Positions 22,887 to 37,843 of a stretch of DNA of 51,129 bases are shown one piece after another (position 1 is the first letter of the stretch; each line of letters begins with the position of its first letter). Source of the DNA: a phage; the sequence record PZ445411.1. One strand, given 5' to 3'. The notes under the pieces were generated by a model. It made no database searches, was not told where the DNA came from, and worked only from the letters and a program-made list of their open reading frames with translations. The position numbers and the translations under genes were made by a program.

Positions 22887-22900
22887 CAGGAGAATGAATA

Positions 22901-23353: not shown

Positions 23354-23360
23354 TCAACAA

Positions 23361-23383
23361 AGGGGCATTACGCCCCTTTTTCA
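23361..23383. terminator. bidirectional terminator between SSB gene (+) and minus-strand ORF
   Basis: AAAGGGGC-attac-GCCCCTTT palindromic hairpin with A/T flanks on both sides. Confidence 0.55.
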
Positions 23384-23625: not shown

Positions 23626-24103
23626 TTGCTTTTCCTTCAGGAGTTGATTGTTGTTCTGGTATTACAGGCCATGGGCTAATTGATTCCCTTTCTGCGACTG
23701 GCTTTTCAGGTTCAATTCCTAAAAACTTTCCTACAAACTCACCAACAAAATTTGAGCTATCGCTTACATAAACATGCATCCTGTCCAGATCTGCAACAGT
23801 AACGCTATTTGGTGCGATCATGATCCTCTGTTGGTGAAAACCGATATACATCACATTAGCCGGACGCTCAAGAGTCCCCATATTTGGCGCAATTACGCCC
23901 ATTATCCAACAATAATGAATGTTGCCATCAAGCGGCTCACATCCAGCGTTAAGCCAGTTTACTTTCTGGTGAGGAAATGCCATTGATGAATCAGTAGCAT
24001 CACGCCGTAACGACCATTTAACGCCGCCAATTTCAATGATTTGTTTCGGCCTCATCCCGTTGAATTGAGTCACGCCAGCGCCATTTTGATTAATGTTTTG
24101 CAT
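23612..24103 (-). CDS. hypothetical protein
   Basis: 163 aa; RBS AAGGTGA; conserved-looking Cys/His residues (NAGCEPLDG, HYCW) but no family recognised. Confidence 0.5.
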   Translation of the reverse strand: MQNINQNGAGVTQFNGMRPKQIIEIGGVKWSLRRDATDSSMAFPHQKVNWLNAGCEPLDGNIHYCWIMGVIAPNMGTLERPANVMYIGFHQQRIMIAPNSVTVADLDRMHVYVSDSSNFVGEFVGKFLGIEPEKPVAERESISPWPVIPEQQSTPEGKANDEK

Positions 24104-24117
24104 ATCGGTTCACCTTG

Positions 24118-24441
24118 TTACATTGATTTCATTTTACGCAATGCGCAGATACAAGCGGCAGCAAGATCGGTTAATTCTTTCTCAATGCCATGATGCGAGC
24201 CTCCTGCCTTTTCGGTCATTAGCTCTTTGTATTCCATTTCTACAATCGACATTAAGCCGCCTGGCTTGTCAATGTGCGCGTCCCATGTTTTAGGATAGTG
24301 CTTAGTTCTTTCAATAACACTTCCCATAACTGAATCATGTTCATGATCTCGATCATAATCTCCATCATGGCCATTCCCTCCAATTACTACTCGCGGCAAA
24401 TGCACGCGCGGTAAATGATAGCCAGCGATACGAATTTTCAT
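24118..24441 (-). CDS. hypothetical His/Asp-rich protein
   Basis: 107 aa; RBS AAGGGG; tandem HLPRV-HLPRV repeat and GNGHDGDYDRDHEHD segment, then EMEYKEL...EKELTDL. Confidence 0.5.
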   Translation of the reverse strand: MKIRIAGYHLPRVHLPRVVIGGNGHDGDYDRDHEHDSVMGSVIERTKHYPKTWDAHIDKPGGLMSIVEMEYKELMTEKAGGSHHGIEKELTDLAAACICALRKMKSM

Positions 24442-24454
24442 GAGTATATCCCCT

Positions 24455-24480
24455 TATAAAAAAGCGCCCCGAAAGGCGCT
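24455..24480 (-). terminator. rho-independent terminator (minus strand) after the glycine-zipper / Cys-rich ORF pair
   Basis: On the minus strand AGCGCC-tttcgg-GGCGCT followed by TTTTTT. Confidence 0.65.
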
Positions 24481-24487
24481 TGATTTA

Positions 24488-24958
24488 TTAGCAACCGCAG
24501 CAGCCAGTCGGCGGAGTCGCCGGAGTAGGCAACTTGAAGTTTACCAGTTGCTCGACTTGGTTGATTTTGCAATTCAGTGCGGCGGTCTGGTTTGCCTGAG
24601 AAAGAGCAAAACGAGCCTCCTGCAACTGAGCTTTCATATCGCAAATCAGAACAGCCTGAGAATCAGCGAACTGTTGACGAATCAGATCTCGCGTTGCATT
24701 GCCTTGTCGCTCAATATTCAGGTTTGTATCACAGCAACATCTCTCCGCTGCAATCTGTGCCTGATAGGAACGCTCAAGAGCATTAACATCGGCAGCATTA
24801 ATCGCAGCAACTGTCTGGTTAGTACCGCTAACAATCGCGGTATTCAGTCCGGCGAAACCTTGCACCGATGCAAGCAGGTTTTGCGTATTCTGGCTGGTAA
24901 TGCCGTTAAAGGTTGACGCGGCGGAGCGCTCAACGGCAAGGTTTGTGGAGTTTTGACC
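24488..24958 (-). pseudogene. downstream continuation of the glycine-zipper ORF, separated by one in-frame TAA (no start codon or RBS of its own)
   Basis: Open frame runs from just after the TAA at 24959-24961 to 24488 in the same frame as ORF 24959-25192; first ATG is deep inside; Cys-rich C-terminus GCCGC. Confidence 0.3.
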
Positions 24959-25192
24959 TTACAGAGTTTGCAGCCCCAGGTTGTTTACTCCTGTCTGGAT
25001 GTTATTAATACCATCAAGAACAGCGTTAGCACCGACAGCAACAGCAGCACCATCACCACCATAACCACCACGACCATTAAAGCCGTTACCAAACCATGAC
25101 CCAATCAGGCCACCAACAGCACCGCCAAGACCAGCCGCGCCAGCTTCGCCACCAAAACCACCACCAGTAGGGAGTAAAGTCATATCTGACAT
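24959..25192 (-). CDS. glycine-zipper-like small protein
   Basis: 77 aa; RBS AGAGGA; GxxxG-rich sequence GGGFGGEAGAAGLGGAVGGLIGSWFGNGFNGRGGYGG; ends at a TAA that is in frame with a further 157 open codons. Confidence 0.5.
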   Translation of the reverse strand: MSDMTLLPTGGGFGGEAGAAGLGGAVGGLIGSWFGNGFNGRGGYGGDGAAVAVGANAVLDGINNIQTGVNNLGLQTL

Positions 25193-25325
25193 AGTAAATT
25201 CCTCTTTGACGTTAAAAAAAATTAAAAAAAGTTTGCAACATTTATGTTACGACAAAGAGTATGCGCCCAATTACCAGGAATAGATATAAAATATTTGTAA
25301 GCGATATGTCAGCAAATGGCATAAA

Positions 25326-25357
25326 GACGAAAAAAGGCGCAGCCGTAGCCGCGCCTT
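25326..25357 (-). terminator. terminator (minus strand) after tail fibre gene
   Basis: GGCGC...GCGCC hairpin; minus strand reads hairpin then TTTTTT. Confidence 0.55.
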
Positions 25358-25371
25358 GTGATTATTTTTTG

Positions 25372-27597
25372 TTAACTTTCCAGCGTTGTTGGCTTGTCGA
25401 GTAACGCCGCCACCGCCTCTTTGAGATCTGCAATTTCAGATTTAAGTGTTTCGATCTCCTCTTGTTGCTTGTCAACTTTTGCCTTTTGCTCTTTGAATGC
25501 GTTAACCAAAAGAGCCACAACTCCATTATAGTTAATTCCTTTGATTGACTCACCTTTTGGTTCTAATCCACAATCATTGTTTAAATAGTGAACAGCTTCC
25601 GGCAAAACCCTTTCAACATCTTGAGCGATCAATCCAGCCTCAATGCTATAAACGCTGTTTTCATCTTCTATAAGATTATTGCGCTTGTAATAAGTATAAC
25701 CAGTTAGATAATCAATTTTGTCGGATGCCGTTTCAATCTCTTTTAGTTGCGCTTTCATCCTTATGTCTGACGTAGAAATCCATTGGCTACAAGTAGCATT
25801 TCCAGCGCTACTGAAAATGAATTCACCACTCTTTACATAAAGGTGAGTTTCAGCGCCGCCACCAGAAAAGTTAATGGCATCCATTCCAGCAATCCAATCA
25901 TCACCCCAATGAACAACCTTGAATACGTTAAAGGCTGCGTCTTTTCCTGTAATCTCGCAAAGCAACCCACAACCACGATCACGCCAACCAGCAAAAGAGC
26001 CTCCCCCAATTTGACCGGAAATCATGGCACTTCCACCACCTGACCTAACGCCAGCAACCCTAATTGAATTATCATCAACAGGATATATGGTTAAACGACC
26101 ATCAAAACGAATGTTTTGAGGAGAAAATGATGCAATACTTCCACCATTACAATAAACCTGCAATATTCCGTCACCGCCCCATTTAAAACCTGTATCATTA
26201 TCTCCAATTGCTATTGAGTATTCACCAAGAAGATTTCCTTTTTCACCAGTAAGTTCAATTATGTTATCGCTTCTAAAAACTCTTTTCCAACCACGCCAGT
26301 TACCGTTATCGCAAACATTTTCCCATTTGTTACCAGAGTGACCTGTTACTGAAAGAAGACCATATAGCAATTTACTTTCATCACTAGTCTTTCCGTGAAC
26401 ATGTAAATTATACATCCACCAAGCGCCGACTTCCGGCAAACCTACAACGTCGCCACCAGAAGAATAATATCCGCTTTCTGGATTGTTTATAAAAAAACTG
26501 AGAATATCAGTCTTGTCAGCAAGTACAACGGCCCTATTACCAACAGGAATATTCAGGTTCTTTCTTGCTCCAGCTTCACTATTAGATCCAGTGCCTCCAG
26601 CATGAATTGAAAGAGGAATAAAACGTTGCAATGCGGTATCCCAGTAACCCCAACCATCGTTACGAACTGTAAGGTATTTGATCTTATCTGGCGACAGAAT
26701 AAGCGTTTCACCATCGACCTGATTAAATCGGTCAACCTTCAATGCTTCCCTTGCAAGGTCTTTATTTTCCAGATCATTAAGGTTTTGATCTTTATGCAGC
26801 AGATTTTCAGGATGTACCTGTTGCGCCCATTGGCGAGCTTCATCACGCGCAGTTTCAGCGCCATGCTTTGCAGTTTCAGCGGCGCTATTTGCAGATTGAG
26901 CGCCAGTCATGTATTGCTGGGCTGAATCCCTTGCTGAAATAGCTTCGTTTTTCAGATTCGAAACATCACCCTTTATCTGATTCATTTCTGAAACAGCCTG
27001 ATCTTTAGTCTGGTTTACAGCTAAAACACCTTGATCGCGTGCGGAATTAACTTCCGTTATCGCAGAATCTTTAATCTGTTGCGTTTGCTCCTTGATTGCG
27101 TTAGTGTCTGCTTTAATCTGGTTTGTTTCAGCAACAGCAGAATCCTTTATCTGTTGAGTGTCGTTTTTCAGTTGTTCAGTAGCAGCACGATCATTGGCTG
27201 TTTTCTCTGCATCACCTTTAACCTGATTAGCCAGATCTTGCAACTGTTTTAGGTCAAAGTTTTTGAAAAATTCAATAGCTTCCTCGATCTGAGTTTCTTT
27301 GCTTTGATAGTAACGCAGCGTTTCCGCAACATCTTGCGCCAGGCCGTCAACAGTTATTGAGTCATGCAGCAAAATAATGTAGTTGCTTCGCCCAATTTCA
27401 GCGCCGCCAGTTGTGATGGCGCGGATTTGTGTATCGCTGATAACTTCACTGATCACAGCCGCTTGAAATGGAGCATCAATGAAAAAGATTGTTGCACCAG
27501 GGCGAATGAGCGTTAGTTGCTCTCGCCATTTTGTGTCGTATCCAGTGATATAACCTTGCGCGTCCATTGACGCTTGTCCGGTTCTGTAAATTGCCAT
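25372..27597 (-). CDS. tail fibre with C-terminal intramolecular chaperone (peptidase S74-like) domain
   Basis: 741 aa from ATG 27597 (RBS GGGAG); coiled-coil N-terminal part; C-terminus has SDIRMK...GLIAQDVERVLPEAV typical of self-cleaving fibre chaperone domains; followed by a terminator. Confidence 0.8.
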   Translation of the reverse strand: MAIYRTGQASMDAQGYITGYDTKWREQLTLIRPGATIFFIDAPFQAAVISEVISDTQIRAITTGGAEIGRSNYIILLHDSITVDGLAQDVAETLRYYQSKETQIEEAIEFFKNFDLKQLQDLANQVKGDAEKTANDRAATEQLKNDTQQIKDSAVAETNQIKADTNAIKEQTQQIKDSAITEVNSARDQGVLAVNQTKDQAVSEMNQIKGDVSNLKNEAISARDSAQQYMTGAQSANSAAETAKHGAETARDEARQWAQQVHPENLLHKDQNLNDLENKDLAREALKVDRFNQVDGETLILSPDKIKYLTVRNDGWGYWDTALQRFIPLSIHAGGTGSNSEAGARKNLNIPVGNRAVVLADKTDILSFFINNPESGYYSSGGDVVGLPEVGAWWMYNLHVHGKTSDESKLLYGLLSVTGHSGNKWENVCDNGNWRGWKRVFRSDNIIELTGEKGNLLGEYSIAIGDNDTGFKWGGDGILQVYCNGGSIASFSPQNIRFDGRLTIYPVDDNSIRVAGVRSGGGSAMISGQIGGGSFAGWRDRGCGLLCEITGKDAAFNVFKVVHWGDDWIAGMDAINFSGGGAETHLYVKSGEFIFSSAGNATCSQWISTSDIRMKAQLKEIETASDKIDYLTGYTYYKRNNLIEDENSVYSIEAGLIAQDVERVLPEAVHYLNNDCGLEPKGESIKGINYNGVVALLVNAFKEQKAKVDKQQEEIETLKSEIADLKEAVAALLDKPTTLES

Positions 27598-27653
27598 GCG
27601 TTTTCTCCCGTGTTGCATATTAATGTCAATGCAGATAATAGCATTTGCTAAGG

Positions 27654-27679
27654 CAAAAAAAAACCCCGCAATGCGGGGT
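27654..27679 (-). terminator. rho-independent terminator (minus strand) after primase-like gene
   Basis: Minus strand: CCCCGC-att-GCGGGG followed by nine T. Confidence 0.7.
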
Positions 27680-27696
27680 AAAAGTAGCAGTGACAT

Positions 27697-28629
27697 TTAG
27701 AGAATAGATTCAGGTTTGAAAACCTTCCTCTCTATCCCTTGTCTGTAATTATCATTAATCGGCATCATAATTTCAAGTCCTCTTTCCTCGGCAGCAATGA
27801 TCGCGTCACGATCTGTGCTCTTACAGACAACTCGCATTCTTCTGTTGCCTTTATACCTGTAAGCCACAATCTCAATGTTAGTTGCATCAAAACAGGCCCA
27901 AACCTCCTGACCAGTTGCAAGGTGAATATGTTGCGCATCAATCCAGTCAACGCAAAGATAGATCGTCTTATCTGTGCTTCCTGTTCTCACAATCGACCCG
28001 CGCGTGTAGTCCTTTGCGAGAAAAGACTTATTACCTTCTTCATCAATGAAAAGCACATTGCACATTTCATCATCAATTTCATCTGAATGTACCAGGTAAC
28101 ATGGGAGCGCGTGAATGTATCGACCATCTTTAACGCCGCATTCATAATAACCATCTTCAGGCGGATATATCCCTTCATATGTACTTAACGGGGTGCGATC
28201 AAATTTTAGTGTTTTCGACATAACTCGCTCGCAGCATTCATGGCTTGCCTGCTTCCCAAACGAATAACCAGAATCACGAGATACTCGCTTATTTGCCTTG
28301 ATCCTATAGTCCTGCGGAACTTTTCCAAGAAAGCGGCCCAAAATATTGATCACTTCGCTGTAAGGTTCTCCGGTTAGCTTCATGATCCAACCAATTCCAG
28401 TATCGTTGCCGCACACGTTGCAGATAGCGCCGCCATCGCCTTTTTTATCGCCAAGTTTATCCGTCCATCTGAAGCGATCCTTTCCGCCGCAGTGGGGGCA
28501 AGATTGATGCTTGCCGTTAAAAACTTCATTTGGAAGACCGCAAATACTTTGTAGCGCCTCACGCCACAATCCTTGCATATATGGGAGAACATCTTCTTTT
28601 TGATAAACCATAAAGTTTTCGTTATTCAT
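27697..28629 (-). CDS. primase-like protein (zinc ribbon + possible TOPRIM)
   Basis: 310 aa from ATG 28629; CPHCGG...CNVCG zinc-ribbon motif; SD GAGGTG sits only 3 nt from the ATG so the start is uncertain. Confidence 0.45.
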   Translation of the reverse strand: MNNENFMVYQKEDVLPYMQGLWREALQSICGLPNEVFNGKHQSCPHCGGKDRFRWTDKLGDKKGDGGAICNVCGNDTGIGWIMKLTGEPYSEVINILGRFLGKVPQDYRIKANKRVSRDSGYSFGKQASHECCERVMSKTLKFDRTPLSTYEGIYPPEDGYYECGVKDGRYIHALPCYLVHSDEIDDEMCNVLFIDEEGNKSFLAKDYTRGSIVRTGSTDKTIYLCVDWIDAQHIHLATGQEVWACFDATNIEIVAYRYKGNRRMRVVCKSTDRDAIIAAEERGLEIMMPINDNYRQGIERKVFKPESIL

Positions 28630-28682
28630 ATACACCTCAAACAAAAAAGCCTGACAGATGATAACATCATGCCAGGCATTGT

Positions 28683-28702
28683 TTTTAGCAATTAGTGCTT
28701 TC
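28683..28702 (-). promoter_or_regulatory. conserved box variant overlapping the HTH gene stop, followed by hairpin and T-run (terminator-like)
   Basis: Minus strand AGCACTAATTGCTAAAAAC, then imperfect hairpin GCCTGGCA...TGTCAGGC and TTTTTTG before the primase-like gene. Confidence 0.35.
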
Positions 28703-29158
28703 AGGTTTATACAGGAATCCGCCAGGTTCATAATCTGACATTCTTACCACTCGCAACATTTCACGCTTATCACATCTCTTTGTGAGCGGTTTTCCATTGG
28801 AATCAAATCGCAGATCTGGACGGCAGAATGAAGCGCGATAGCCTTGACAGCCATACTTTTTGTAATCGTTATGCACCTTTTGAGCGCCAGCGGCTGAAAT
28901 CATACCGCGAACGCGCCACTGATTTACAGTTTGCTGGCTAACGTTAAGACGCTTTGCCATTGCTGACACGCTGCCGTAATACTCAATAAGAATGTCAAGC
29001 CGTGCTTTTAGTCCGGCGCGCACCTCATCTTTTAGAACATAATAACCTGTCGGTCGCTTGCGCTTCTTCTTGTCCTTGCCTCGTCTTGTTCCGTTATTGC
29101 CATTAATTGTGCGCTTGTCAATCTTGCCTGTTGATACCGCGATTCGTTGCTCTTTCAT
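28685..29158 (-). CDS. HTH DNA-binding protein (putative transcriptional regulator)
   Basis: 157 aa; RBS GGAG; helix-turn-helix-like SAMAKRLNVSQQTVNQW; very basic N-terminus; sits at a divergent promoter region. Confidence 0.55.
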   Translation of the reverse strand: MKEQRIAVSTGKIDKRTINGNNGTRRGKDKKKRKRPTGYYVLKDEVRAGLKARLDILIEYYGSVSAMAKRLNVSQQTVNQWRVRGMISAAGAQKVHNDYKKYGCQGYRASFCRPDLRFDSNGKPLTKRCDKREMLRVVRMSDYEPGGFLYKPESTNC

Positions 29159-29172
29159 TATTCATTCTCCAA

Positions 29173-29214
29173 TAGCATTTTTTGTTAAACGATGATTTAA
29201 TGATTGTGTATTAT
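29173..29214 (+). promoter_or_regulatory. conserved box + -10-like hexamer (promoter-like cassette) upstream of helicase gene
   Basis: TAGCATTTTTTGTTAAAC, 21 nt, TATTAT (29209-29214); in divergent intergenic region. Confidence 0.45.
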
Positions 29215-29247
29215 ACACGCCAAATGGCATTACTCAAAGGTTTTAGA

Positions 29248-31287
29248 ATGATTCCAAACATTGAAAAGCAAATATCAGCACTTGGTGAAGCGGTAATTAA
29301 ATCCATACAGGATCGATTCACTGTTGGCGATATTGTTCCTTACCCTTACCAGTGCGTTGCATACGCTGAGATCGCAAAGCGTATGAAAAATTATGAGCAT
29401 CCATTCTTTGTTAAAGCGTCCGTATCGGCTGGCAAAACATTGATGTTTGCAATGGTTGCTCACCAGTGCCGGAAAATGGGGTTAAAAATGATGGTCCTTG
29501 CTCGCCAGGCTGAGATTGTGGATCAGGATTCTGAAGAGATAACAAATCTTGGCGTGCCGAACTCAATCTATTGTGCAGGACTGAAGACAAAAAGCGCATA
29601 CTTTCCGATTGTTGTTGGTTCTGAGGGCACTGTAGTTAATGGGCTGTTTAAAGCGCTTGGCGACTATGTTCCGCACGTTATCGGGATTGACGAGTGTCAC
29701 CAGGTGGATTGGGAAGACCTTGCCGACGCCATAGAGAAAGACGAATCATTTTTACAAATGACAACGAAGAAAGGCGAAAAAGTACCAAATCCAGATTATG
29801 ACATAACGAGCGATAACGAATGCGAAGAGTTCCTGATTGGTGAGGATGGCTTACCAATGGAGGGAACAGGCCGCACGCAATACACTGTCATTATCATGGA
29901 AATGATGCGACGTTGCAGGAAAGCATATGGTCATGAACTGCGCATCTTTGGTATGACTGGTTCGGAGTTTCGCGGAGTAGTCCCGATCCTGGTAGAAGAC
30001 AAAAAACAGAAAGGATTCTGGCGTGAACAGGTTACTAATATTGACACCAACTACCTGATCAAATTCGGTTCTGTTGTGCCAACAAATTTTGGCGACGTTG
30101 GCGATCTAGGGTATGACCTTTCAGAGTTTGAGGCATCCAGCGAGGATGGCGTTGCAGACTTTGACGCTAAAACGCTTCGCAGGATGGAACAAAAAATTCA
30201 TGAAGAAGCTACCATGACAAAGCGCATCATGGAGAAAGTGCACGAGATCTGTAAAAACCGTAACGGCGTACTTGTGACATGCGCAGGAGAAAGGCACTGT
30301 AAAGAGGCAGCGGCAGCGTTGCCACCTGGAACGACTTACAGGATCATTACTGGTAAGACTGGCGATAACCAGCGCAAGGAGTGGTTGAAGGAAGCATACG
30401 AAGGGAAGGTAAAATACATATTCCAGGTGCAGGCGCTAACAACTGGCGTTAACGTTCCGTTTTGGGATACATCTGTCATTCTGCGCAAGATTGGATCGCT
30501 AACTTTGCTGATTCAGCTTTTAGGTCGCGGAATGCGACTACTTAAGAAGTGGCATAAGGAGCAAGGATTCAAGAAAGATGATCACCTCGTTATGGATTTT
30601 TCAGGAACGATGGATGAGTTAGGGGAGCTTTATTTTGATCCGATACTGGAGCAGGCGCAACATCAGAAGCGATTCAGGAACGGTAAAGATCCGAAGCCGT
30701 GCCCTATTTGCGGAACTCTTAACAGCTATTATGCTCGTCGTTGTATGCACGTAGACGAAAACGGAAACAGATGTGAGTGGTTCTTTAAATTCAGGACATG
30801 TGATGATCAGATTGACCCGCGCACTAAAAAGATTATTCAGCGCGGTTGCGGAACGAAGAATGATATTGCGGCCAGGGTATGCAGACATTGCGACATGTCA
30901 TTGATTGACCCTAACGAGAAGTTGAGCGGAAAGCACTACACAAAAAATGACTGGTTCAAGGTGCAATCTTTCTCGGTTGACATGACGAAAAACCAGAAAG
31001 GGATAATATTTAATTATGAGCTTTCCGATGGCATAGACACTTTCAGGGCGAGAGAGATATTTTTCCCTGAATCTGAGAGCCAAATTTGCCGCGCAAAATG
31101 GCGAAGCGTTGCTCTTAAGCACATACCGGATCGCCGTGTTGCTGGCATGGTGGCGAGCTATCGTAATGCACGAAAAATAATGCAATATGTGAATCACATC
31201 ATGCCACCATCGCGTGTGACTCACCGCAAGACTAGCAAGGGAGAAGATAATTTGTACAAGAAGGAGTTTAATTATGGCAATGACTGA
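29248..31287 (+). CDS. SF2 DEAD/DEAH-type helicase
   Basis: Walker A SVSAGKT, DECH box, motif VI QLLGRGMR; C-terminal Cys clusters; start chosen at 29248 (RBS AAAGG) rather than the track start 29182. Confidence 0.75.
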   Translation: MIPNIEKQISALGEAVIKSIQDRFTVGDIVPYPYQCVAYAEIAKRMKNYEHPFFVKASVSAGKTLMFAMVAHQCRKMGLKMMVLARQAEIVDQDSEEITNLGVPNSIYCAGLKTKSAYFPIVVGSEGTVVNGLFKALGDYVPHVIGIDECHQVDWEDLADAIEKDESFLQMTTKKGEKVPNPDYDITSDNECEEFLIGEDGLPMEGTGRTQYTVIIMEMMRRCRKAYGHELRIFGMTGSEFRGVVPILVEDKKQKGFWREQVTNIDTNYLIKFGSVVPTNFGDVGDLGYDLSEFEASSEDGVADFDAKTLRRMEQKIHEEATMTKRIMEKVHEICKNRNGVLVTCAGERHCKEAAAALPPGTTYRIITGKTGDNQRKEWLKEAYEGKVKYIFQVQALTTGVNVPFWDTSVILRKIGSLTLLIQLLGRGMRLLKKWHKEQGFKKDDHLVMDFSGTMDELGELYFDPILEQAQHQKRFRNGKDPKPCPICGTLNSYYARRCMHVDENGNRCEWFFKFRTCDDQIDPRTKKIIQRGCGTKNDIAARVCRHCDMSLIDPNEKLSGKHYTKNDWFKVQSFSVDMTKNQKGIIFNYELSDGIDTFRAREIFFPESESQICRAKWRSVALKHIPDRRVAGMVASYRNARKIMQYVNHIMPPSRVTHRKTSKGEDNLYKKEFNYGND

Positions 31288-31693
31288 TAAAGGCGATTAT
31301 CTGGAGTTTTACGAAAGAGATCCGACGGATACGCTAAAGGAGGAATCACACCAGATCGGGGCGTTTCAATGGTTAACTTATGCTCATCCTGAATTTCTTG
31401 CCTGGCATACGAAAAACGAGGGCGACAAGGGGATCGCCACCGCAATGATGGATCAGCAAGCAGGACTCGTTAAGGGCGTAAGTGATTTTATCATCCTGAT
31501 TGGATTAAAAGGCCGTTATCCGTTTGCAGCAATTGAGATGAAGCGCGTCAATAAGTCTGGAAAGGGCAAGGCTTCACCAGTCAGTAAGGAGCAAAAAGCC
31601 TTCTTACGCCGTGTGCGCGAGCTTGGCGGATTCGCTGCCGTAACATACGGATATAAGCAATTCATGATCGCTGTAGAATACATGATGAAATAG
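31274..31693 (+). CDS. VRR-NUC domain nuclease
   Basis: 139 aa; RBS AAGGAG; PD-(D/E)XK-like D...EMK arrangement (SDFIIL...AAIEMKRV). Confidence 0.55.
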   Translation: MAMTDKGDYLEFYERDPTDTLKEESHQIGAFQWLTYAHPEFLAWHTKNEGDKGIATAMMDQQAGLVKGVSDFIILIGLKGRYPFAAIEMKRVNKSGKGKASPVSKEQKAFLRRVRELGGFAAVTYGYKQFMIAVEYMMK

Positions 31694-31733
31694 CACTTTT
31701 TGTTAAAACAGGCGCGAAGGATTGCGCCATAAT
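31691..31733 (+). promoter_or_regulatory. conserved box + hairpin + CATAAT cassette
   Basis: TAGCACTTTTTGTTAAAAC (TAG is the VRR-NUC stop), hairpin GGCGCGAAGGATTGCGCC, CATAAT 22 nt after TTGTTA. Confidence 0.5.
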
Positions 31734-31767
31734 AACACCAGTTCAACAAGCAACAGGTAATTAAGAA

Positions 31768-32469
31768 ATGAGCAAAGAAACCGAAGTGACATTTGAACAA
31801 ATCGAACGAGAAACATTCATTGGCAATGCTCTTGCTACAGGAGGCTATTACCAGGCTGTTAAACCAAATAAATATTATAAGGTAACTGGCAACAGATATA
31901 ACGGCAGCAATACGCCGGACGTTGTGCGAGATTTGTGGTCTACGCCGTCTGAGCTTGTCGCATGGATGGAAATCGAATACGGTGATTATGACATCGACGC
32001 GGCGGCAAGCAAAGAAAATGCTGTATGTGAAAAATTCTACAGCAAGGAAACAAATTGCTTAAAGCGTTGGTGGGGTAGTAATAAGCATATCTGGCTGAAT
32101 CCACCGTACAGTAATATAACGCCTTTCGTTAAGAAAGCGATTGAGCAAATGGAGCACAATAACCAGATCGACATTCTGTTACCTTGCGACACATCTACAG
32201 GATGGTTTTATGAGGCACAACAGAAAGCAGCGGAAATCATCTGGATCACTGGCGAAGTTTACCAGGAGGAAGGAATAGAATATTCCAGAACTGGACGGCT
32301 TGCTTTCACTTCAGCGCTTACAGGTAAACCAGTGCAGGGAAACAACAAAGGAAGCGTTATTTTCATCATGCGCGAACTTAAAGAAGGTGAGCAGCAGAAA
32401 ACTCGATACGTTAAGATCAGCGACATTTGCCCGTCAGTGGCAGAGCGTCGAGCAAGAAAGCGGAGTTAA
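31768..32469 (+). CDS. DNA N6-adenine methyltransferase (Dam-like)
   Basis: 233 aa; catalytic NPPY motif (WLNPPYSN); no adjacent restriction endonuclease gene. Confidence 0.75.
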   Translation: MSKETEVTFEQIERETFIGNALATGGYYQAVKPNKYYKVTGNRYNGSNTPDVVRDLWSTPSELVAWMEIEYGDYDIDAAASKENAVCEKFYSKETNCLKRWWGSNKHIWLNPPYSNITPFVKKAIEQMEHNNQIDILLPCDTSTGWFYEAQQKAAEIIWITGEVYQEEGIEYSRTGRLAFTSALTGKPVQGNNKGSVIFIMRELKEGEQQKTRYVKISDICPSVAERRARKRS

Positions 32470-32473
32470 TATC

Positions 32474-32713
32474 ATGCAGAAAGAAAGAAGCGTTTATTTA
32501 AATGAAACTGGAGAGTGGTTGTTATTTCGCGCTATGGTTTGCGAGGCGCTTGATAAAAACGAGTTCATAAAACCGCTATTAGGTTGTGATCCGTGGGAGT
32601 TTACAAGCGCGCTTGACATGAGCTTTGAGGAAACAAGAAAACTACCGCTTGAAAAATGGCATGAGCAGATCGGTAAAGACTTGCAAGAGTTTTACGAATC
32701 CGCGACAAAATAG
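32474..32713 (+). CDS. hypothetical protein
   Basis: 79 aa from ATG 32474; stop codon TAG is the first triplet of a conserved box. Confidence 0.45.
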   Translation: MQKERSVYLNETGEWLLFRAMVCEALDKNEFIKPLLGCDPWEFTSALDMSFEETRKLPLEKWHEQIGKDLQEFYESATK

Positions 32714-32753
32714 CACTTTTTGTTAAAACGCCCGGCCTTGTGTCGGGCATAAT
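32711..32753 (+). promoter_or_regulatory. conserved box + hairpin + CATAAT cassette
   Basis: TAGCACTTTTTGTTAAAAC, hairpin GCCCGGCCTTGTGTCGGGC, CATAAT at 32748-32753. Confidence 0.5.
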
Positions 32754-32785
32754 TATTTCATCAAAACGAACAAGAGGAAAACAAA

Positions 32786-32965
32786 ATGGTTGTTTACGAT
32801 CCACGCGCTTTTAAAATTGCCCAAGAAGTTTCACGCGAATCTGTTGCTGGCGGTTCTGTTAACGGCTATCAGTTTGATTGGTCGGCAGCAATGACCTTGC
32901 TTAAGGTTGCATATGGTCACGCACCAATTGAAACAGCGGAGGAATATTATAAGCATGAAGGTTGA
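32786..32965 (+). CDS. hypothetical small protein
   Basis: 59 aa, below the ORF-track size cutoff; RBS AAGAGGAAAACAAA-ATG. Confidence 0.35.
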   Translation: MVVYDPRAFKIAQEVSRESVAGGSVNGYQFDWSAAMTLLKVAYGHAPIETAEEYYKHEG

Positions 32966-33197
32966 ACAAGGTAGGCAGGCTGTATGGGATCACGCAAAGG
33001 AATGCGGGATCGCAGAAGACATATCCAGGATAGCGAAATATTTTGATATTGCTGACATAAGCATTATCAGCGGCGACAAAATGACATTTCTCAATGAACG
33101 ACCGCGCAAGATGCATCGCGTCCCAGCAATACCAACAAAGATTGATTTCAAAGAGGCTATGGCGAAAATTCGCGAGCCGCGCAAATACTACAAATGA
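32955..33197 (+). CDS. hypothetical protein
   Basis: 80 aa from ATG 32955 with RBS GGAGGAA. Confidence 0.4.
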   Translation: MKVEQGRQAVWDHAKECGIAEDISRIAKYFDIADISIISGDKMTFLNERPRKMHRVPAIPTKIDFKEAMAKIREPRKYYK

Positions 33198-33295
33198 GGA
33201 TTATTATCATGTGGCGTTTGTTACTTTTGCCCTTACCTGTTATGATGGCGATCTCTATTGTATACGTTGTCATAATGAGATAAGGAGAATTTTTG

Positions 33296-34411
33296 ATGAA
33301 GCAAATCAAAATCACAGATGAACAATTTATCAATGAGCGCAAGCAGGGAAAGACATATAAGCAGATCGCTAATGAGTATGGCATGAACGTTCGCAGCATT
33401 GAGCGCCGCGCGGCAAGATTAGCAAAGCAAGGTAAAGTTACAACCATCGGATCACCTGGTTTTGGTGTTACTGGAGAATCAAAGCTAATTGATAAAGATG
33501 GCAATGTGGTTATGACATGGATTAAGACAAGCAAGGACCGCGAACAGTTAGAAGCATTAATGCAGGCCGCTATGGATGCATTTAGCGAAGAAGTTCCGCG
33601 ACTTGATCCACAGCCAGAATCACAAAAGGATTATAGCGAGACGTTATCACTGTATCCGATATTTGACATGCACTTGGGCGCAATGGCGCATAAGCATGAA
33701 TGCGGCGAGAATTGGGATACAGCAACAGCAGAGCGCGTAATGAATAATTTCATTGATTATTCCATCCAGTGCGCGCCGGATAGTGAAAAGGCTGTTTTGC
33801 TGATTGGTGGTGATATGCTTCACAGCGACGGACTGGAAGCGGTAACGCCTGCAAGCGGTCACGTATTAGATCAAGATAGTCGATATGCAAAACTTGTTTA
33901 TGTTGCTATCCGGTCGGTTCGTCGAGCAATTACAAAGCTGTTATCAAAACACAAAAACGTCGAGATCCAAATCATTGAAGGCAACCACGACCAAAGCGGT
34001 ATGATCTGGTTGCGCGCAGCAATGGCGGCAGCATATGAGAATGAGCCGCGAGTGCATGTTGATGTGTCTCCGCGAGTAGTTCATCACACACAATATGGCA
34101 AAACGTTCCTGGCATACCATCACGGGCATACTATCCGCAAACCTGAAACATTGCTCATGATGTGCGCGGCAGACTGGCGCGAAGATTTCGGCAATTCAAA
34201 AATGATGTATGCTCACGTAGGGCACTGGCATCATCAGACAGTAACTGAAACAAGCCTGGGCATTGTTGAAGTGCATAGCACTATGGCGGCAAAAGATGCA
34301 TATGCGGCGCGCGGTGGATGGCGTTCTCGTCGCCGTGCGGCTGTTATTGTTTACGATAAAGAATACGGCGAAGTCGGGCGATTTATGCATTATCCAGAAA
34401 TGGCTGATTGA
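33296..34411 (+). CDS. metallophosphoesterase-like protein with N-terminal HTH
   Basis: 371 aa, RBS AAGGAG; N-terminal HTH-like YKQIANEYGMNVRSIERR; phosphoesterase-like motifs DMH, GGDMLHSD, GNHD, HWHH. Confidence 0.5.
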   Translation: MKQIKITDEQFINERKQGKTYKQIANEYGMNVRSIERRAARLAKQGKVTTIGSPGFGVTGESKLIDKDGNVVMTWIKTSKDREQLEALMQAAMDAFSEEVPRLDPQPESQKDYSETLSLYPIFDMHLGAMAHKHECGENWDTATAERVMNNFIDYSIQCAPDSEKAVLLIGGDMLHSDGLEAVTPASGHVLDQDSRYAKLVYVAIRSVRRAITKLLSKHKNVEIQIIEGNHDQSGMIWLRAAMAAAYENEPRVHVDVSPRVVHHTQYGKTFLAYHHGHTIRKPETLLMMCAADWREDFGNSKMMYAHVGHWHHQTVTETSLGIVEVHSTMAAKDAYAARGGWRSRRRAAVIVYDKEYGEVGRFMHYPEMAD

Positions 34412-34454
34412 ACTTTTAATCATTAAAATATAAATATAAATCATCAATTTAATT

Positions 34455-34485
34455 GGGCGACGCATTTTGCTTCGCCCTTTTTTTA
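34455..34485 (+). terminator. rho-independent terminator upstream of lysis cassette
   Basis: GGGCGA...TCGCCC hairpin then T7. Confidence 0.65.
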
Positions 34486-34557
34486 TTCCTTTTTGTTCGT
34501 TCAATGGTTAGGATACAATCAATTAATTGTTGACTTTTATTTACAGGAGATCTAATC

Positions 34558-34773
34558 ATGAAAGATTTTTTAAACGCTGCAACTTCAGGCACTGGCGGAG
34601 CGTCAATCACTGGCGCGGTAACTGGTCAAACAACTATTGCAATAGCCAGCTTCGTTTTGATGGCTGCATTTGGTATGTGGGGCGCTTATCTTCGTTGGCG
34701 TGATAGTAAGGCGCTACGTGACGCGCTTGAGTGCGGTGATATTAAGAAAGCTATTGAAATCAGGGGTAAATAA
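34558..34773 (+). CDS. holin
   Basis: 71 aa; one hydrophobic TM segment and charged C-terminus; RBS AGGAG; directly upstream of lysozyme. Confidence 0.55.
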
Positions 34774-35261
34774 TGAGCATAAAACAAAGAGTGACCGCTG
34801 CGGCTTTTGGCGTTGCTCTTGCTCTTACTTCTCCATTACTGGAGGAAATAGAAGGAGTAAAATATAAGCCGTACAAAGATATTGCTGGAATATGGACGGT
34901 TTGCGCCGGAATAACTGGATCTGACGTAATACCAGGTAAGACGTACACGAAGAGAGAATGCGATGCGCTACTGGCAAAGCATATCAAGATCGCAAAGGAT
35001 GAAGTTGATAAGCGTGTGAATGTTGATATTCCTGATACAATGCGCGCGGCAATGTATTCATTCACATACAATGCTGGCACTGGTGCTTTTAGAAATTCAA
35101 CCATGCTTAAGCTGATTAATAACGGTCGTTATATGGAAGCGTGCAATCAGTTATGGCGATGGACAAAATACACCAATCCAAAAACAGGAAAGAAAGAAAC
35201 GTCTAAAGGACTGCGCAACCGCCGCGCTGTGGAATTTAAATATTGCATTAAGGATCTGTAA
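34773..35261 (+). CDS. endolysin (T4-type lysozyme)
   Basis: 162 aa; catalytic E-x8-D-x5-T arrangement ([16 protein letters not shown]); start overlaps holin stop. Confidence 0.8.
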
Positions 35262-35263
35262 TT

Positions 35264-35662
35264 ATGAGAAAGTTATCAGTAATCGCGATCGCTGTTATCT
35301 TGTCTGGATGTTCAAGCGTTACGCCACTGACCGGATTGATAGGAAACAAGCCTGAGATAACAGCACAGGCAGGAGCGGAGAACGTAAAACAGACCGTCGG
35401 CCTGACAGCAAAACAGGACGCCAGCACAAAACAGGATACGACAATTAAAGAGTCGAAAGTTGACACTGTTGATACTTCAAACAAAAAGGAGATCAGAACG
35501 TCAACCATTCAGGCTAACACCATCAAGGCTGATAAAATCCAGGTGGTACAGGGTGAGCAAGGTAAGTGGTACGATCCTATAATATATTGCGCTGCAATTT
35601 TTAGTGGTCTTTTGTTAATGACTTACTTTTCCTACCGCAAAGGCAACAAAAAGGAGGCTTAA
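35264..35662 (+). CDS. unimolecular spanin (u-spanin)
   Basis: 132 aa; N-terminal lipoprotein signal (LSGCSS) plus C-terminal TM helix, the architecture described for T1 gp11. Confidence 0.65.
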   Translation: MRKLSVIAIAVILSGCSSVTPLTGLIGNKPEITAQAGAENVKQTVGLTAKQDASTKQDTTIKESKVDTVDTSNKKEIRTSTIQANTIKADKIQVVQGEQGKWYDPIIYCAAIFSGLLLMTYFSYRKGNKKEA

Positions 35663-35676
35663 CGCCTCCTTTGTTA
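35645..35676. terminator. bidirectional hairpin between convergent spanin gene (+) and minus-strand block
   Basis: AAGGAGGC-ttaac-GCCTCCTT; both convergent stop codons fall in or beside the hairpin. Confidence 0.5.
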
Positions 35677-35868
35677 TTCAATTCTCTTTACAGTAACCAA
35701 CAAAACGCCGTCCTCATCACACAAATTATGCTCTGATATGTTAAACGCTCGCATGTCAGAATGAATTAGCGTTAACATTGCGTGCATGAAGTCGTCATGT
35801 GAGATTGAACTTACGGCGCAGAACTTCAATATTTTGTCTATTAGCATTTGACGTAAACAATTCTTCAT
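35674..35868 (-). CDS. hypothetical protein (possible 3' part of a frameshifted gene)
   Basis: 64 aa; overlaps ORF 35795-36187 by 74 nt in another frame. Confidence 0.3.
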   Translation of the reverse strand: MKNCLRQMLIDKILKFCAVSSISHDDFMHAMLTLIHSDMRAFNISEHNLCDEDGVLLVTVKRIE

Positions 35869-36187
35869 CGCTCATTTCTCCGATCCGTAAAACATCCCTT
35901 ACCCATTCGTTTTGCATACCATCCAGGCTGTAAAGTTCAAACGAGAAAGGGCGATTTGCTGATCCTTTCTTACACCAGAACTTTCCACCAACTCCATCAA
36001 GATAACCAGCGGTCATCATTCTTGCGCAAAACTCTTTTGAAACGGCAGTAGCAAACATTCTCGGCGTAAATCCTGCGGCCCTTGCTAGCCGCTCACATTC
36101 TCTATGCTGAAAGATAAATTTTGCTATATGTTGACGCGTAAACCATTCGAATGACTCACACCAGCGATACAGATCCAGAAGAAACAT
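35795..36187 (-). CDS. hypothetical protein
   Basis: 130 aa; ATG 2 nt after the upstream stop (TAATTATG). Confidence 0.4.
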   Translation of the reverse strand: MFLLDLYRWCESFEWFTRQHIAKFIFQHRECERLARAAGFTPRMFATAVSKEFCARMMTAGYLDGVGGKFWCKKGSANRPFSFELYSLDGMQNEWVRDVLRIGEMSDEELFTSNANRQNIEVLRRKFNLT

Positions 36188-36189
36188 AA

Positions 36190-37773
36190 TTACCCCAGCA
36201 ATGTTGGATTTACGAAAACAACGCCATTAATCACACAAATATAATTTCTTTCTTCAAGCATCGGCAGCAGTTGCGTTTCCATACGCTTCATTACGCCAGC
36301 CTGACCAACAAACGGCTTAACTTTTCGTGCTGCCTCATATATGGCGCGCACATTCAGGATTCCCTTATTAGCCTTGCCGTGTCGAGTGATTATCTCGATT
36401 AGTTTACCCATTTCAGCATCATCACCAGCGTAGCCAGAAGCGTTGGCGGCGCTAATGTATGTTTTGCTCAACTCGCTAAACATCAACAATGCTTCCTGAA
36501 CGGTTTCAACCTCAATCTCTTTCGACTTCTGAGGGTATCCGCCAGGATTAAACCAATTTCGGATAGTGTGCAAAACCGAAGCAATCCTGATCACCTGCTT
36601 ATCCATTTTGCCAAGAGCGCCGCGCAGCATTGTATGCGAATACTTTCCGCCATCAGCAAGGTGCGGCTCCATCTCCTGACGAGCCATGTTAAGAACTCGC
36701 ATTGCTGATTTGCTGATCTTAAGCTGGATGTTTGATTCACTCATGATGTTATGGATCAGCTTGAAATATTGGCTTTTCAGTTCCCCATCAACAGGCTCAT
36801 AAGTAGAATCACCGTTATCATCAACAAACTTTCTACGGCCTAAAAATGATTCCTCACGCACAAGCAAATAACGCTCACTTACACCGATACCGCGCGATCC
36901 TGCATCCATGATGGCATTGATTGTTTCATCCTGGGCAATTACCGCCATACAGCCAAGAGCTTTAAAACTCATATTGTTGTCAGCGTTTGCACGAGCTATA
37001 GAAACATGACCATGATCCCATGCTTTTAGCACAAGTTCGCTGTTGGTTTTACGTTCGCTATTGGCATATGTCAGACCTAAAAGGCTGTTAATACTTGTTG
37101 CCTCGTCTGAAATCACAGCAAAGTTACCCTGGCGATTGTTGATTCTTGCAAGTCCTTCCGGCGTTGTGTCGGACACAGGGAAAACGATGTCACACATCTT
37201 TTCCAGTTTTTCTTCCAGATCTTCTTTCTCCTGGTACAGAGACTCCATATCAGCGCCGGAGCGCTCGCTTTTCATCTCTTTTGCAAGACCTGCCAACTTT
37301 GCCTGAATCTTTTTTCTTTCCTTCTTTCGCTGATCATTAATTCTTTCCACTTCAGCAACCATAGGAGCAAGTGCCAGGCTGTTAACGGCAGATTTACCAG
37401 TTGATGGAGGCTGGCTTGTGACAACGTAAAGAGCGGTTGGTTGATCCGTTCCGTGATACTCAACCGTGAAGCGTCCAAGCATTGCAGCAGATACACAGCC
37501 GATAAAATGCATATATGCCGATGATTCAGGGAATTGAACAGATCGAGCAATGTTTCGCGCCAACTTTCCAACAACATCAACATCATTGCCAAGAGAAATT
37601 ACAGGGTAGCGATCGTTTCCGTTATTAACATCATTAACCTCACCCCAAAAGCTGGACGATTGACGGTATCCGTTAGCCTGAATGGACACGCGCACCGGAG
37701 ACAATCCTTGTGCATCAGCTAATTCGATAATTTGTTTTGGTGTTAGTTTATTGGTTTCAAACGAAAAATTCAT
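36190..37773 (-). CDS. primase/helicase-like replication protein (P-loop)
   Basis: 527 aa from ATG 37773 (RBS AAAGGAG); the longer track start 37827 would overlap a conserved box; P-loop-like SQPPSTGKSA. Confidence 0.5.
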   Translation of the reverse strand: MNFSFETNKLTPKQIIELADAQGLSPVRVSIQANGYRQSSSFWGEVNDVNNGNDRYPVISLGNDVDVVGKLARNIARSVQFPESSAYMHFIGCVSAAMLGRFTVEYHGTDQPTALYVVTSQPPSTGKSAVNSLALAPMVAEVERINDQRKKERKKIQAKLAGLAKEMKSERSGADMESLYQEKEDLEEKLEKMCDIVFPVSDTTPEGLARINNRQGNFAVISDEATSINSLLGLTYANSERKTNSELVLKAWDHGHVSIARANADNNMSFKALGCMAVIAQDETINAIMDAGSRGIGVSERYLLVREESFLGRRKFVDDNGDSTYEPVDGELKSQYFKLIHNIMSESNIQLKISKSAMRVLNMARQEMEPHLADGGKYSHTMLRGALGKMDKQVIRIASVLHTIRNWFNPGGYPQKSKEIEVETVQEALLMFSELSKTYISAANASGYAGDDAEMGKLIEIITRHGKANKGILNVRAIYEAARKVKPFVGQAGVMKRMETQLLPMLEERNYICVINGVVFVNPTLLG

Positions 37774-37800: not shown

Positions 37801-37843
37801 ATAATACCGCACCAATGCTACCCGCATTTAACAAAAAATGCTA
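37801..37843 (-). promoter_or_regulatory. conserved box + TATTAT cassette (minus strand)
   Basis: Minus strand TAGCATTTTTTGTTAAATG (TAG is the stop of gene 37841-38062), 22 nt, TATTAT; upstream of primase/helicase-like gene. Confidence 0.5.

Follow-up and report, generated by a model that had tools for sequence, protein, structure and literature searches.

The repeated box of the T1-like coliphage (Drexlerviridae, Hanrivervirus) analysed here, whose DNA was taken as a single window of 51,129 nt, lies at a fixed distance from a -10 hexamer and fits the MarA/SoxS/Rob "marbox" motif perfectly, with an orientation and spacing equal to those of the Escherichia coli micF promoter. Judging from the sequence, it is somewhat more probable than not that the box is a class II marbox of the phage early and middle promoters, which replaces the -35 element and is read by the host proteins MarA, SoxS or Rob. 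The match in both sequence and position suggests that the phage borrows these activators to switch on its early genes.

The box sequence is ATAGCACTTTTTGYTAAAAC, and a looser scan located approximately 22 copies of it in the window. Sixteen matches within three mismatches of ATAGCACTTTTTGTTAAAA were found where 0.10 would be expected, and 100 shuffles never gave as many. All four copies named in the initial annotation are present, with coordinates that agree to within 1 nt. The element is the previously published "21-nt direct repeat" of TLS, T1 and Rtp. In TLS, the repeat was described as DR1-DR18 and was also noted in T1, Rtp and Rogue1, with the consensus aaATAGCACnnnTTGnTAAAA and about 20 copies per genome that run along transcription some 76 nt before start codons (PMC11447400). 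The window box shares that consensus and is likewise found in many intergenic, co-directional copies about 76 nt before an ATG; DR10, with terminator T57, corresponds to the copy at 28682, and DR11 to the copy at 29172. The TLS paper offered a stoperator, an enhancer site or an UP element as possible functions, and makes no mention of the -10 spacing or of the marbox identity (PMC11447400). The fixed -10 spacing of the repeat, its marbox identity and the terminators nested inside promoters are new here.

In 18 of the 22 window copies, a -10 hexamer (TAnnnT or cATAAT) is located 17-18 nt 3' of the 20-mer. Across T1 and 44 related loci, 224 distinct box contexts were considered, and for 182 of them the best -10 within offsets 5-40 fell at 17-18. 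Since the -10 lies at this distance, the boxes are centred near -41 (spanning about -50 to -31) in promoters lacking a -35, and are therefore promoter elements, making up the upstream half of about twenty phage promoters. No recognisable -35 hexamer was found 16-18 bp from the -10 of the box promoters, and a sigma-70 consensus scan of the 27.5-33.5 kb region called none of them, the -35 position reading AAAACn. Copies of the promoter type point in the same direction as the next gene and precede its ATG by about 76 nt, as in the TLS paper; examples are the boxes at 31690 and 32710, followed by genes at 31768 and 32786. Conserved copies outside this promoter geometry are found at 1566, 5822-5841 (minus strand) and 15497.

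An A/T-rich box upstream of a -10 could also act without any dedicated reader, as an UP-like element for the polymerase alpha subunit or as an unusual -35, an option that was raised by the TLS authors (PMC11447400). This seems to us a poor prospect. UP elements are A/T-rich at -40 to -60 and have no conserved G or C, whereas G4, C5, C7 and G13 are nearly invariant in the box, which moreover extends to -31, within -35 territory. As for an unusual -35, the TTGYTA contained in the box is separated from the -10 by 22 bp, a distance too great for sigma-70.

In 12 of 19 promoters, folding placed a stable hairpin between the box and the predicted start site. By their sequence, these GC hairpins, situated in the spacer or around the -10, look like 3' ends or terminators of the upstream unit, and the T1 and TLS records label the box-adjoining hairpins as terminators. 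The initial annotation had proposed that the box is part of a combined termination and re-initiation module, and the sequence bears this out through the -10 at 17-18 nt, the nested hairpins, the conserved terminator described below and the terminator annotations of T1 and TLS. A different matter is whether the box itself could be a roadblock ("stoperator"), a terminator part or an RNA processing signal instead of a promoter element. The box read on the opposite strand does provide a TTTT tract after the hairpin, but this reading leaves unexplained the fixed 17-18-nt distance to the -10 in about 80% of copies. In addition, the copies at 29172, 41955 and 20305, which head divergent units, have a box and a -10 and no hairpin by folding. 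The phage is virulent, with no repressor or integrase annotated, and the fixed -10 spacing does not correspond to a stoperator of the mycobacteriophage L5 type, an asymmetric site where a bound repressor blocks elongation in a temperate phage, unrelated to any -10. We thus regard such a role as highly improbable.

The copies that follow the VRR-NUC gene and the gene after Dam were both noted in the initial annotation. In each, the TAG of the box is the stop codon of the preceding gene. The Dam-promoter box (31690-31709, plus strand) takes its TAG from VRR-NUC and is followed by a spacer hairpin (31711-31728, -11.4 kcal/mol) that ends in the -10 CATAAT at 31728-31733; the sequence after this hairpin is ATAATAACACC, with no T-run. 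The box at 32710-32729 (plus strand), whose TAG ends the gene after Dam, belongs to the promoter of a 59-aa ORF at 32786. Its spacer hairpin (32730-32748, -13 kcal/mol) ends in the -10 CATAAT at 32748-32753, has the tail ATAATTATTT and was called terminator-like. Elsewhere in the window, six more box promoters belong to the leftward early operon (minus strand; 20-mers at 37825-37844, 38501-38520, 39900-39919, 40552-40571, 41058-41077 and 41936-41955) and six more to the rightward one (plus strand; 43345-43364, 43808-43827, 44857-44876, 45858-45877, 47353-47372 and 48698-48717). There is also a box promoter at 20286-20305 (minus strand) for a small cor-like gene (20004-20231, minus strand), and another at 21795-21814 (plus strand; ACAGCACAAATAGCTAAACA, 17 nt, TATAAT) upstream of an ORF at 21876.

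At the junction between the HTH gene and the primase gene, the elements are on the minus strand. The box, a marbox-like 20-mer (AAAGCACTAATTGCTAAAAA, 28682-28701), encloses the TAA that ends the HTH gene (28685-28687) and is followed by a predicted intrinsic terminator of the HTH transcript (28643-28677), formed by a hairpin at 28677-28649 and TTTTTT at 28648-28643. Thus, the overlap with the HTH stop and the imperfect hairpin and T-run before the primase gene, which had been noticed at first inspection, hold. The hairpin has 12 bp and one bulge, with folding energies of -17 to -20 kcal/mol and z scores of -4.3 to -5.8. In ten diverged relatives the hairpin and T-run (T5-T7) are kept at this junction, with -14 to -18 kcal/mol and unrelated stem sequences, and T1 and TLS annotate a terminator at the same site. 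With its stable, GC-rich stem-loop, the T-run directly after it and the conserved structure, it has the sequence features of a rho-independent terminator. The terminator loop carries, 18 nt beyond the box, a -10 hexamer TATCAT (28658-28663) preceded by TGt; in the relatives, the loop likewise retains a TAnnnT hexamer at a distance of 17-18 nt. The box and TATCAT are predicted to constitute the primase promoter, with a start site near 28651-28652, upstream of the gene for a protein with a zinc-ribbon primase domain (27697-28629, minus strand; ATG at 28629-28627). Transcripts of the HTH gene, driven by sigma-70, would end at the terminator, and those of the box promoter would begin within the 3' arm of the hairpin and, because the start lies inside that arm, would escape termination.

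The copy assigned to the divergent region 5' of the helicase gene was also confirmed. This box (ATAGCATTTTTTGTTAAACG, 29172-29191, plus strand) is kept in all relatives examined and is followed after 17 nt by the -10 TATTAT (29209-29214, plus strand), the helicase ATG being at 29248; the -10 core TATTATA is invariant among relatives. On the opposite strand, the consensus scan found a canonical sigma-70 promoter of the HTH gene (TTGAGT-16-TATAAT, 29210-29237, minus strand), which is also kept in relatives as TTGAAT, TTGTCA and similar hexamers followed by TATAAT. The -10 elements of the two promoters have 5 bp in common. The TATTATA core belongs to both promoters, which should compete for polymerase.

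The identification of the box as a marbox is based on several comparisons. The 20-mer consensus of the marbox is AYnGCACnnWnnRYYAAAYn. Logos built from copies selected on one half of the box recovered, in its other half, A1, GCAC at 4-7, W at 9-10, T12, G13, Y14, Y15 and AAA at 16-18. The MarA motif derived from ChIP is gcannwwntgnnaaa (PMC12052159), and the window contains 19 exact matches to it, where random sequence would give about 2. Sites of SoxS, RamA and MarA have been mapped in Salmonella by ChIP-seq, and some of them are identical to box cores: the site GCACTTTTTGCAAAA is the same as the window copy at 45858, and GCATTTTTTGCTAAA the same as the box in the divergent region of loci L014 and L015. 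Read directly, the promoter of E. coli micF consists of ACAGCACTGAATGTCAAAAC, 18 nt, TAGAAT, 7 nt and +1; the orientation is identical in the phage boxes, and so is the 18-nt spacing (17-18 nt in the phage). On micF, RamA is located at about -41; a -35 is absent from class II promoters; and in the Rob box the A site is GCAC and the B site, CAAA, overlaps the -35, with Rob occluding sigma region 4. In sequence, the phage boxes share with class II marboxes the asymmetric motif, the forward orientation, the overlap with the -35, the centre near -41 and the micF-like distance to the -10. The box is, on the other hand, conserved beyond what the marbox consensus needs at T2, A3 and T11, and has discrete centre variants (TTTTT, GAATT and AAAWR), which could mean another reader or added constraints.

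The initial annotation had put forward the adjacent HTH protein as the factor that binds the box. This is a Cro-like protein of 157 aa with a single HTH (28685-29158, minus strand; PHROG 2856, annotated as "transcriptional regulator"), and it could be imagined to activate class II promoters and to repress its own overlapping promoter. Its gene is among the very few with a canonical sigma-70 promoter, as would suit an immediate-early regulator; the leader of its own transcript includes the box; the -10 is common to the two promoters; a partial dyad, TAGCA-N5-TGCTA, is present in many copies; and gene and boxes co-occur in Drexlerviridae and Dibbivirus. Nevertheless, the proposal was not supported. 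A single Cro-type HTH does not agree with an asymmetric box in which A1, C7 and the AAA at 16-18 have no symmetric partners, and in which an invariant G4 is set against C or T at position 14. The recognition helix varies among relatives (SQQTVNQWR, SNQTVQGWK, SIQVVQQWR, GTQVVNEWV), and in Pantoea phage AAM37, which has identical boxes with the same 18-nt spacing, it is completely different (PFSGVRSWK, as opposed to SQQTVNQWR). A site for a dimeric Cro/CI-type protein would not be expected to show only a partial dyad, asymmetric conservation and no change with the helix. On the basis of AAM37 in particular, the HTH protein is an unlikely reader, and the idea that it binds the box, with a dual activator and repressor role, has, in our opinion, a very small chance of being correct.

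There is also the possibility that the box is read by a phage factor beyond recognition by sequence search, which activates the same promoters, and that the resemblance to the marbox reflects convergence or deliberate mimicry. As a rule, promoter motifs specific to phages are recognised by factors of the phage itself, and the tight conservation mentioned above is more than a marbox needs. Furthermore, two small proteins without assigned function are common to the window phage and to AAM37; small early proteins shared with Dibbivirus, such as those of ORFs 32474-32713 or 32955-33197, might be candidates. However, none of the 30 unassigned ORFs has a recognisable DNA-binding domain, no homologue of MarA, SoxS or gp49 was found by tblastn or with a small HMM, and a perfect marbox match together with the micF geometry would have to be coincidental. 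For these reasons we consider a phage reader unlikely.

According to the host-activator reading that we prefer, one of the enterobacterial dual-HTH stress activators MarA, SoxS or Rob (and RamA in Klebsiella and Salmonella) would bind the box, displace sigma region 4 on the DNA and recruit the host RNA polymerase. Of these proteins, Rob suggests itself first, as the host always contains it. An independent hint in favour of this reading comes from AAM37, which encodes an AraC-family protein of the size of MarA, with MarA and RamA as its best solved relatives; the base-contacting residues of MarA are not kept in it, so it is only a hint. Sequence is unconstrained in the spacer that separates the box from the -10, which would allow the phage to house the stem-loop that terminates the upstream transcript there or around the -10; in this way stop codon, box, hairpin, -10 and start site could be packed into about 45 nt. 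Against this reading, unstressed cells contain little MarA and SoxS, and most of their Rob is sequestered; dependence on these proteins looks risky for a virulent phage.

A bolder version, to which we give little credence, would have nearly all T1-like early and middle transcription pass through MarA/SoxS/Rob/RamA, with the same protein serving as a timer that activates about 18 class II early promoters, represses the head-gene promoter and is titrated during replication. In the sigma-70 promoter of the major head gene, the spacer is taken up by a reversed box, which would serve for repression; MarA, SoxS and Rob repress pbpG from such a reversed-orientation geometry. Hundreds of replicated genomes, each with about 20 near-consensus sites, would then soak up the limited activator pool, the early promoters would weaken and repression of the capsid promoter would be lifted. 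If this were true, host stress or exposure to antibiotics (salicylate, paraquat, bile or a ramA-overexpressing Klebsiella) would tune phage yield.

The Drexlerviridae are a very large family that includes T1, many laboratory contaminants and therapy phages of Klebsiella and E. coli. To our knowledge, their transcription has never been worked out, and the latest genome paper identified no more than three sigma-70 promoters and left the 21-nt repeat unexplained. If host activators do read the box, most of the early programme of a virulent phage would depend on a host stress regulon, which would be a rare case. Exposure to antibiotics or stress, and drug-resistance mutations of the mar/ram type, could then affect phage productivity, with relevance for phage therapy and phage-antibiotic synergy. 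The terminator-in-promoter layout is a tidy example of genome compaction.

Apart from the 21-nt repeat itself, the closest known systems include the class II promoters of MarA/SoxS/Rob/RamA in enterobacteria, represented by micF. Like the phage boxes, their site of 20 bp is asymmetric, carries GCAC and YAAA at a distance of seven bp, points forward, overlaps and replaces the -35, and lies 18 bp from the -10 with its centre near -41. Unlike those host promoters, the phage boxes are present in about 20 near-consensus copies on a 50-kb virulent genome, appear to drive genes of replication and recombination and small early genes in place of stress genes, and have terminator hairpins nested in the promoters. 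In the middle promoters of T4, a MotA box centred at -30 is read by the phage proteins MotA and AsiA. There too, a conserved box replaces the sigma-70 -35 and defines a temporal gene class, but the box described here is at -41, fits a host activator site and has no phage reader detectable by sequence searches. Finally, rho-independent terminators flank the modules of T1 that are called "transcriptons" (Roberts et al. 2004, as cited in PMC11447400), and the box-adjoining hairpins correspond to the terminators 35930-35971, 38973-39001, 39998-40024 and 41980-42007 of the T1 record. The organization found here differs in that the terminator stem-loop is placed inside the next promoter, in its spacer or around its -10.

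The four copies of the repeated 20-mer (the box) that the initial annotation had named were all found in the window. The junction box (28682-28701, minus strand) contains the TAA stop of the HTH gene, the second box (29172-29191) lies in the 89 bp that separate the divergent HTH and helicase genes, and the boxes at 31690-31709 and 32710-32729 each provide the TAG stop of the preceding gene. Matches with up to three mismatches number 16 in the window against 0.10 expected, so the box is not a product of chance, and looser scans bring the count to about 22 copies. A 2024 re-annotation of phage TLS described a 21-nt direct repeat, aaATAGCACnnnTTGnTAAAA, present in 21 copies, co-directional with transcription and located ~76 nt 5' of start codons, which is also found in T1, Rtp and Rogue1 (PMC11447400). 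The TLS authors counted only three sigma-70-like promoters and offered stoperators, enhancer-binding sites and UP elements as options for the repeat (PMC11447400). The TLS direct repeats DR10, with terminator T57, and DR11 are the counterparts of the two boxes flanking the HTH gene in the window.

The 8 kb around these boxes is 95-97% identical to Hanrivervirus phages of Escherichia, Shigella and Salmonella (Drexlerviridae), among them PGN590, haarsle, pSf-1 and G29-2. Genes are arranged as in T1: up to about 20 kb, the plus strand encodes the terminase and structural proteins, with RecE, Erf and SSB next; the tail fibre, the primase and the small HTH protein are encoded on the minus strand; and the helicase, VRR-NUC, Dam, small ORFs and lysis genes return to the plus strand, beyond which small early genes form two divergent blocks. 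Some twenty GenBank entries under the name 'Campylobacter phage' (MG0656xx) share 95-100% identity with the E. coli/Shigella phage group of the window; they are probably mislabelled or contaminants.

When the copies are aligned on their own strand, a TAnnnT or cATAAT hexamer stands exactly 17 or 18 nt 3' of the 20-mer in 18 of the 22, and a purine-rich ribosome-binding site with a start codon follows about 30-40 nt beyond this -10 hexamer. The same spacing was seen when 224 distinct box contexts were collected from T1 and from 44 loci surrounding HTH homologues: in 182 of them, the best -10-like hexamer, searched at 5-40 nt, was at offset 17 or 18. Judged from these sequence features, the boxes are promoter elements. 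With a -10 at this offset, the box would span about -50 to -31, with its centre near -41. At the normal distance no -35 was found, and a sigma-70 consensus scan misses the box promoters; TTGYTA within the box was considered as a -35 and rejected, as its spacer to the -10 would be 22 bp. That the box acts as an UP-like element with no dedicated reader, in line with one of the options of the TLS authors, seems to us quite unlikely; in a by-eye comparison with consensus sequences, neither UP nor IHF, CRP, FNR or Fis fitted the box. Many box promoters, in the window as in T1, share a conserved leader, (C)ATCGAAACGA(R), which opens at their predicted start, at about +1 to +11 (for example 32759-32770, 43394-43405 and, on the minus strand, 41897-41886), and could be an initial-transcribed, stability or translation signal. 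Directly 3' of the box promoter at 40552-40571 there is a small early ORF (40302-40496, minus strand) matching Pfam PF25180, 'Phage antiviral trigger protein Gp54' (E 9e-37).

Strong hairpins (-11 to -19 kcal/mol, z below -2.9) are nested in 12 of the 19 box promoters of the window, either filling the spacer and ending at the -10 or enclosing the -10 and ending at about -1. They are always 5' of the predicted start site and can thus only belong to RNA coming from the upstream gene; box promoters with no co-oriented upstream gene (29172, 20305 and 41955) have no hairpin. In the T1 record, exactly these hairpins are listed as rho-independent terminators. Since a proper T-run is absent after most of them, those hairpins may be weak terminators or protective 3' structures. 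The stop of the upstream gene often lies inside the box, as the TAG of ATAGCAC or the TAA of CTAAAA (1566, 31690, 32710 and 28682 in the window, and homologous junctions in the related locus L022 and similar loci), so that about 45 nt hold stop codon, activator site, terminator stem and -10 together. A marbox-like site at 32116, within the Dam gene, has 5 mismatches and was set aside as chance.

At the HTH/primase junction, the minus strand presents a 12-bp hairpin (28677-28649), TTTTTT (28648-28643) and then the primase ATG (28629-28627); what had been noticed there as a terminator-like unit is, in sequence, a canonical terminator. When the sequences of ten diverged relatives (T1, Klebsiella-type phages and others) were folded one by one, each gave a hairpin of -14 to -18 kcal/mol at this position, with T5-T7 next to it. 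Their stems are unrelated in sequence (GCCTGGCA, CGCGTAG, GCCCAGC, TCGCGTG, CGCCTGC and GCGGTGAGGGA), and a TAnnnT hexamer is retained in the loop, 17-18 nt from the box. A MAFFT alignment of the junction gave no structure in RNAalifold because these unrelated stems were misaligned. According to the mechanism that we propose, the junction hairpin would end the HTH transcript while carrying the -10 of the primase promoter in its loop; RNA begun at the primase promoter would open in the 3' arm, so that the hairpin could not form. The nested hairpins, the fixed spacing between box and -10 and the junction terminator support the earlier suggestion of a termination and re-initiation module.

In the divergent region, the relatives keep the box and the helicase ribosome-binding site, and TATTATA stands invariant 17-18 nt 3' of the box. 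Read rightward, TATTATA gives TATTAT, the -10 of the helicase promoter; read leftward, it gives the TATAAT of a canonical sigma-70 promoter (TTGAGT-16-TATAAT, 29237-29210), which is predicted to drive the HTH gene. Simultaneous occupancy of the helicase and HTH promoters would be impossible. The sole further consensus sigma-70 promoter that was detected (42545-42573) stands at the head of the rightward early block. A 111-nt GT-rich repeat with internal TGTGTGGTGATTTTT-like units occupies the two largest non-coding regions of the window (20418-20528 and 42251-42361, 72% identical), one copy being in the divergent early control region beside this promoter; the repeat may serve as an origin, for packaging or in regulation.

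The 20-mer consensus of the marbox, the DNA site of the host activators MarA, SoxS and Rob, is AYnGCACnnWnnRYYAAAYn. A MarA motif derived from ChIP-seq is 5'-gcannwwntgnnaaa-3' (PMC12052159), and the common box core, GCACTTTTTGTTAAA, fits every specified position of it; exact matches to this motif number 19 in the window vs about 2 in Markov-random sequence. As a check on circularity, sites were chosen by the -10 and one half of the box, and the other half was then read. One side was regained as A1, T/C2, A3 and GCAC at 4-7, and the other as W9, W10, T11-T12-G13, C/T14, T/C15 and AAA at 16-18; to judge by these letters, the regained pattern is that of the marbox, degenerate positions included. 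Conservation is asymmetric, as a monomeric protein having two helix-turn-helix motifs would lead one to expect. This asymmetry, together with position 14, which is C or T, led us to reject a palindromic operator, TAGCA-N5-TGCTA. Furthermore, some Salmonella ChIP-seq sites of MarA, SoxS, Rob or RamA have exactly the sequence of a box core: GCACTTTTTGCAAAA is that of the window copy at 45858, and GCATTTTTTGCTAAA that of the divergent-region box of two related loci (L014 and L015).

As for the protein that reads the box, the initial annotation named the adjacent HTH protein (28685-29158, minus strand) as a candidate. It has one Cro-type HTH (residues 54-91), matches the Cro-family chains 5w8y_A (protein XPH1, E 2e-5) and 3bd1_A (Cro protein, E 3e-4), and gives Pfam Cro and YdaS matches just under threshold; a single-sequence AlphaFold model, of mean pLDDT 48, was confident only in a four-helix HTH domain (44-101). 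Its recognition helix differs among relatives having the same box. Pantoea phage AAM37, a myovirus of the genus Dibbivirus, carries a T1-type replication module (21473-36390 of its locus) and shares the helicase, HTH, primase, Dam, VRR-NUC, RecE and Erf genes with the window. It has at least 10 near-consensus boxes, including four with one mismatch or none, and a -10 follows them at 18 nt, but its HTH recognition helix is wholly different (PFSGVRSWK vs SQQTVNQWR). Recognition of the box by the HTH protein is thus very unlikely, and we do not retain that proposal.

A 136-aa AraC-family protein (AAM37 gp49, 25901-26311), related most closely among solved structures to MarA and RamA, is encoded by AAM37 and its relatives, Xanthomonas phage DIBBI being one of them. 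This protein gives only a hint, since the MarA base-contact residues are not retained, and its homologues occur only in AAM37, PSKM and DIBBI. No phage homologue of MarA was found by tblastn with MarA, SoxS and AAM37 gp49 as queries or with a small HMM, nor by Pfam scans of 30 unassigned ORFs; a phage factor beyond sequence recognition is an unlikely reader. Given the misfit of the HTH protein and that no AraC-family protein was detectable in the window or in T1, host MarA, SoxS and Rob appear as the best candidates, a reading that we hold with slightly better than even confidence. It should be noted that some points count against it: in unstressed cells MarA and SoxS are in short supply and most Rob is sequestered; conservation of the box is tighter than a marbox needs; and several conserved copies are outside promoter geometry. 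The alternative that the box is a roadblock or a processing signal we consider highly improbable.

Some copies occur in other settings. A reversed box (5822-5841, minus strand) fills the spacer of a sigma-70-like promoter (5817-5844, plus strand; TTGCAC-16-TATCAT) just 5' of the major head gene (ATG at 5888); the T1 counterpart of this promoter is at about 15062-15095 (TTGACG-16-TATTAT). Because MarA, SoxS and Rob repress pbpG from the same position, this box may be a repression site for a late promoter. After the major tail gene, another reversed box (9557-9600, minus strand), kept in T1 at 18850 (minus strand), has TAGCAT 18 nt downstream and is aimed leftward into a bidirectional terminator (9516-9543); this arrangement predicts an RNA of ~30 nt, antisense to the end of the tail gene. 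The variant ATAGCACAAAAGGTGAAAAA (15497-15516, plus strand) holds the ribosome-binding site of the tail-tip gene, with the ATG 3 nt past its 19-nt core and no -10 at promoter distance; it is kept in three genera, being also found in T1 (25021) and as TLS DR8. The box at 1566-1585 (plus strand) provides the TAG stop of the large terminase gene, has no -10 at promoter distance and is followed by a terminator (GGCTGG...CCAGCC then T7, hairpin at about 1598-1625); at the matching position of T1 no box was found.

In the literature searched, we found no link between the marbox and T1-like phages, and the search for T1 transcriptomes or start-site maps gave nothing relevant. The box itself was already known; what appears new is to read it as a class II marbox promoter in which terminators are nested. 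In promoters of this class, the marbox is in forward orientation and overlaps the -35, and no -35 is recognisable. By cryo-EM, RamA is placed on micF at about -41 and Rob on a box of 20 bp; the GCAC and CAAA elements of the Rob box overlap the -35, and sigma region 4 is displaced. The retrieved E. coli micF sequence reads ACAGCACTGAATGTCAAAAC, 18 nt, TAGAAT, 7 nt and +1; the phage box promoters equal it in orientation and in the 18-nt spacing, and their predicted geometry is that of class II.
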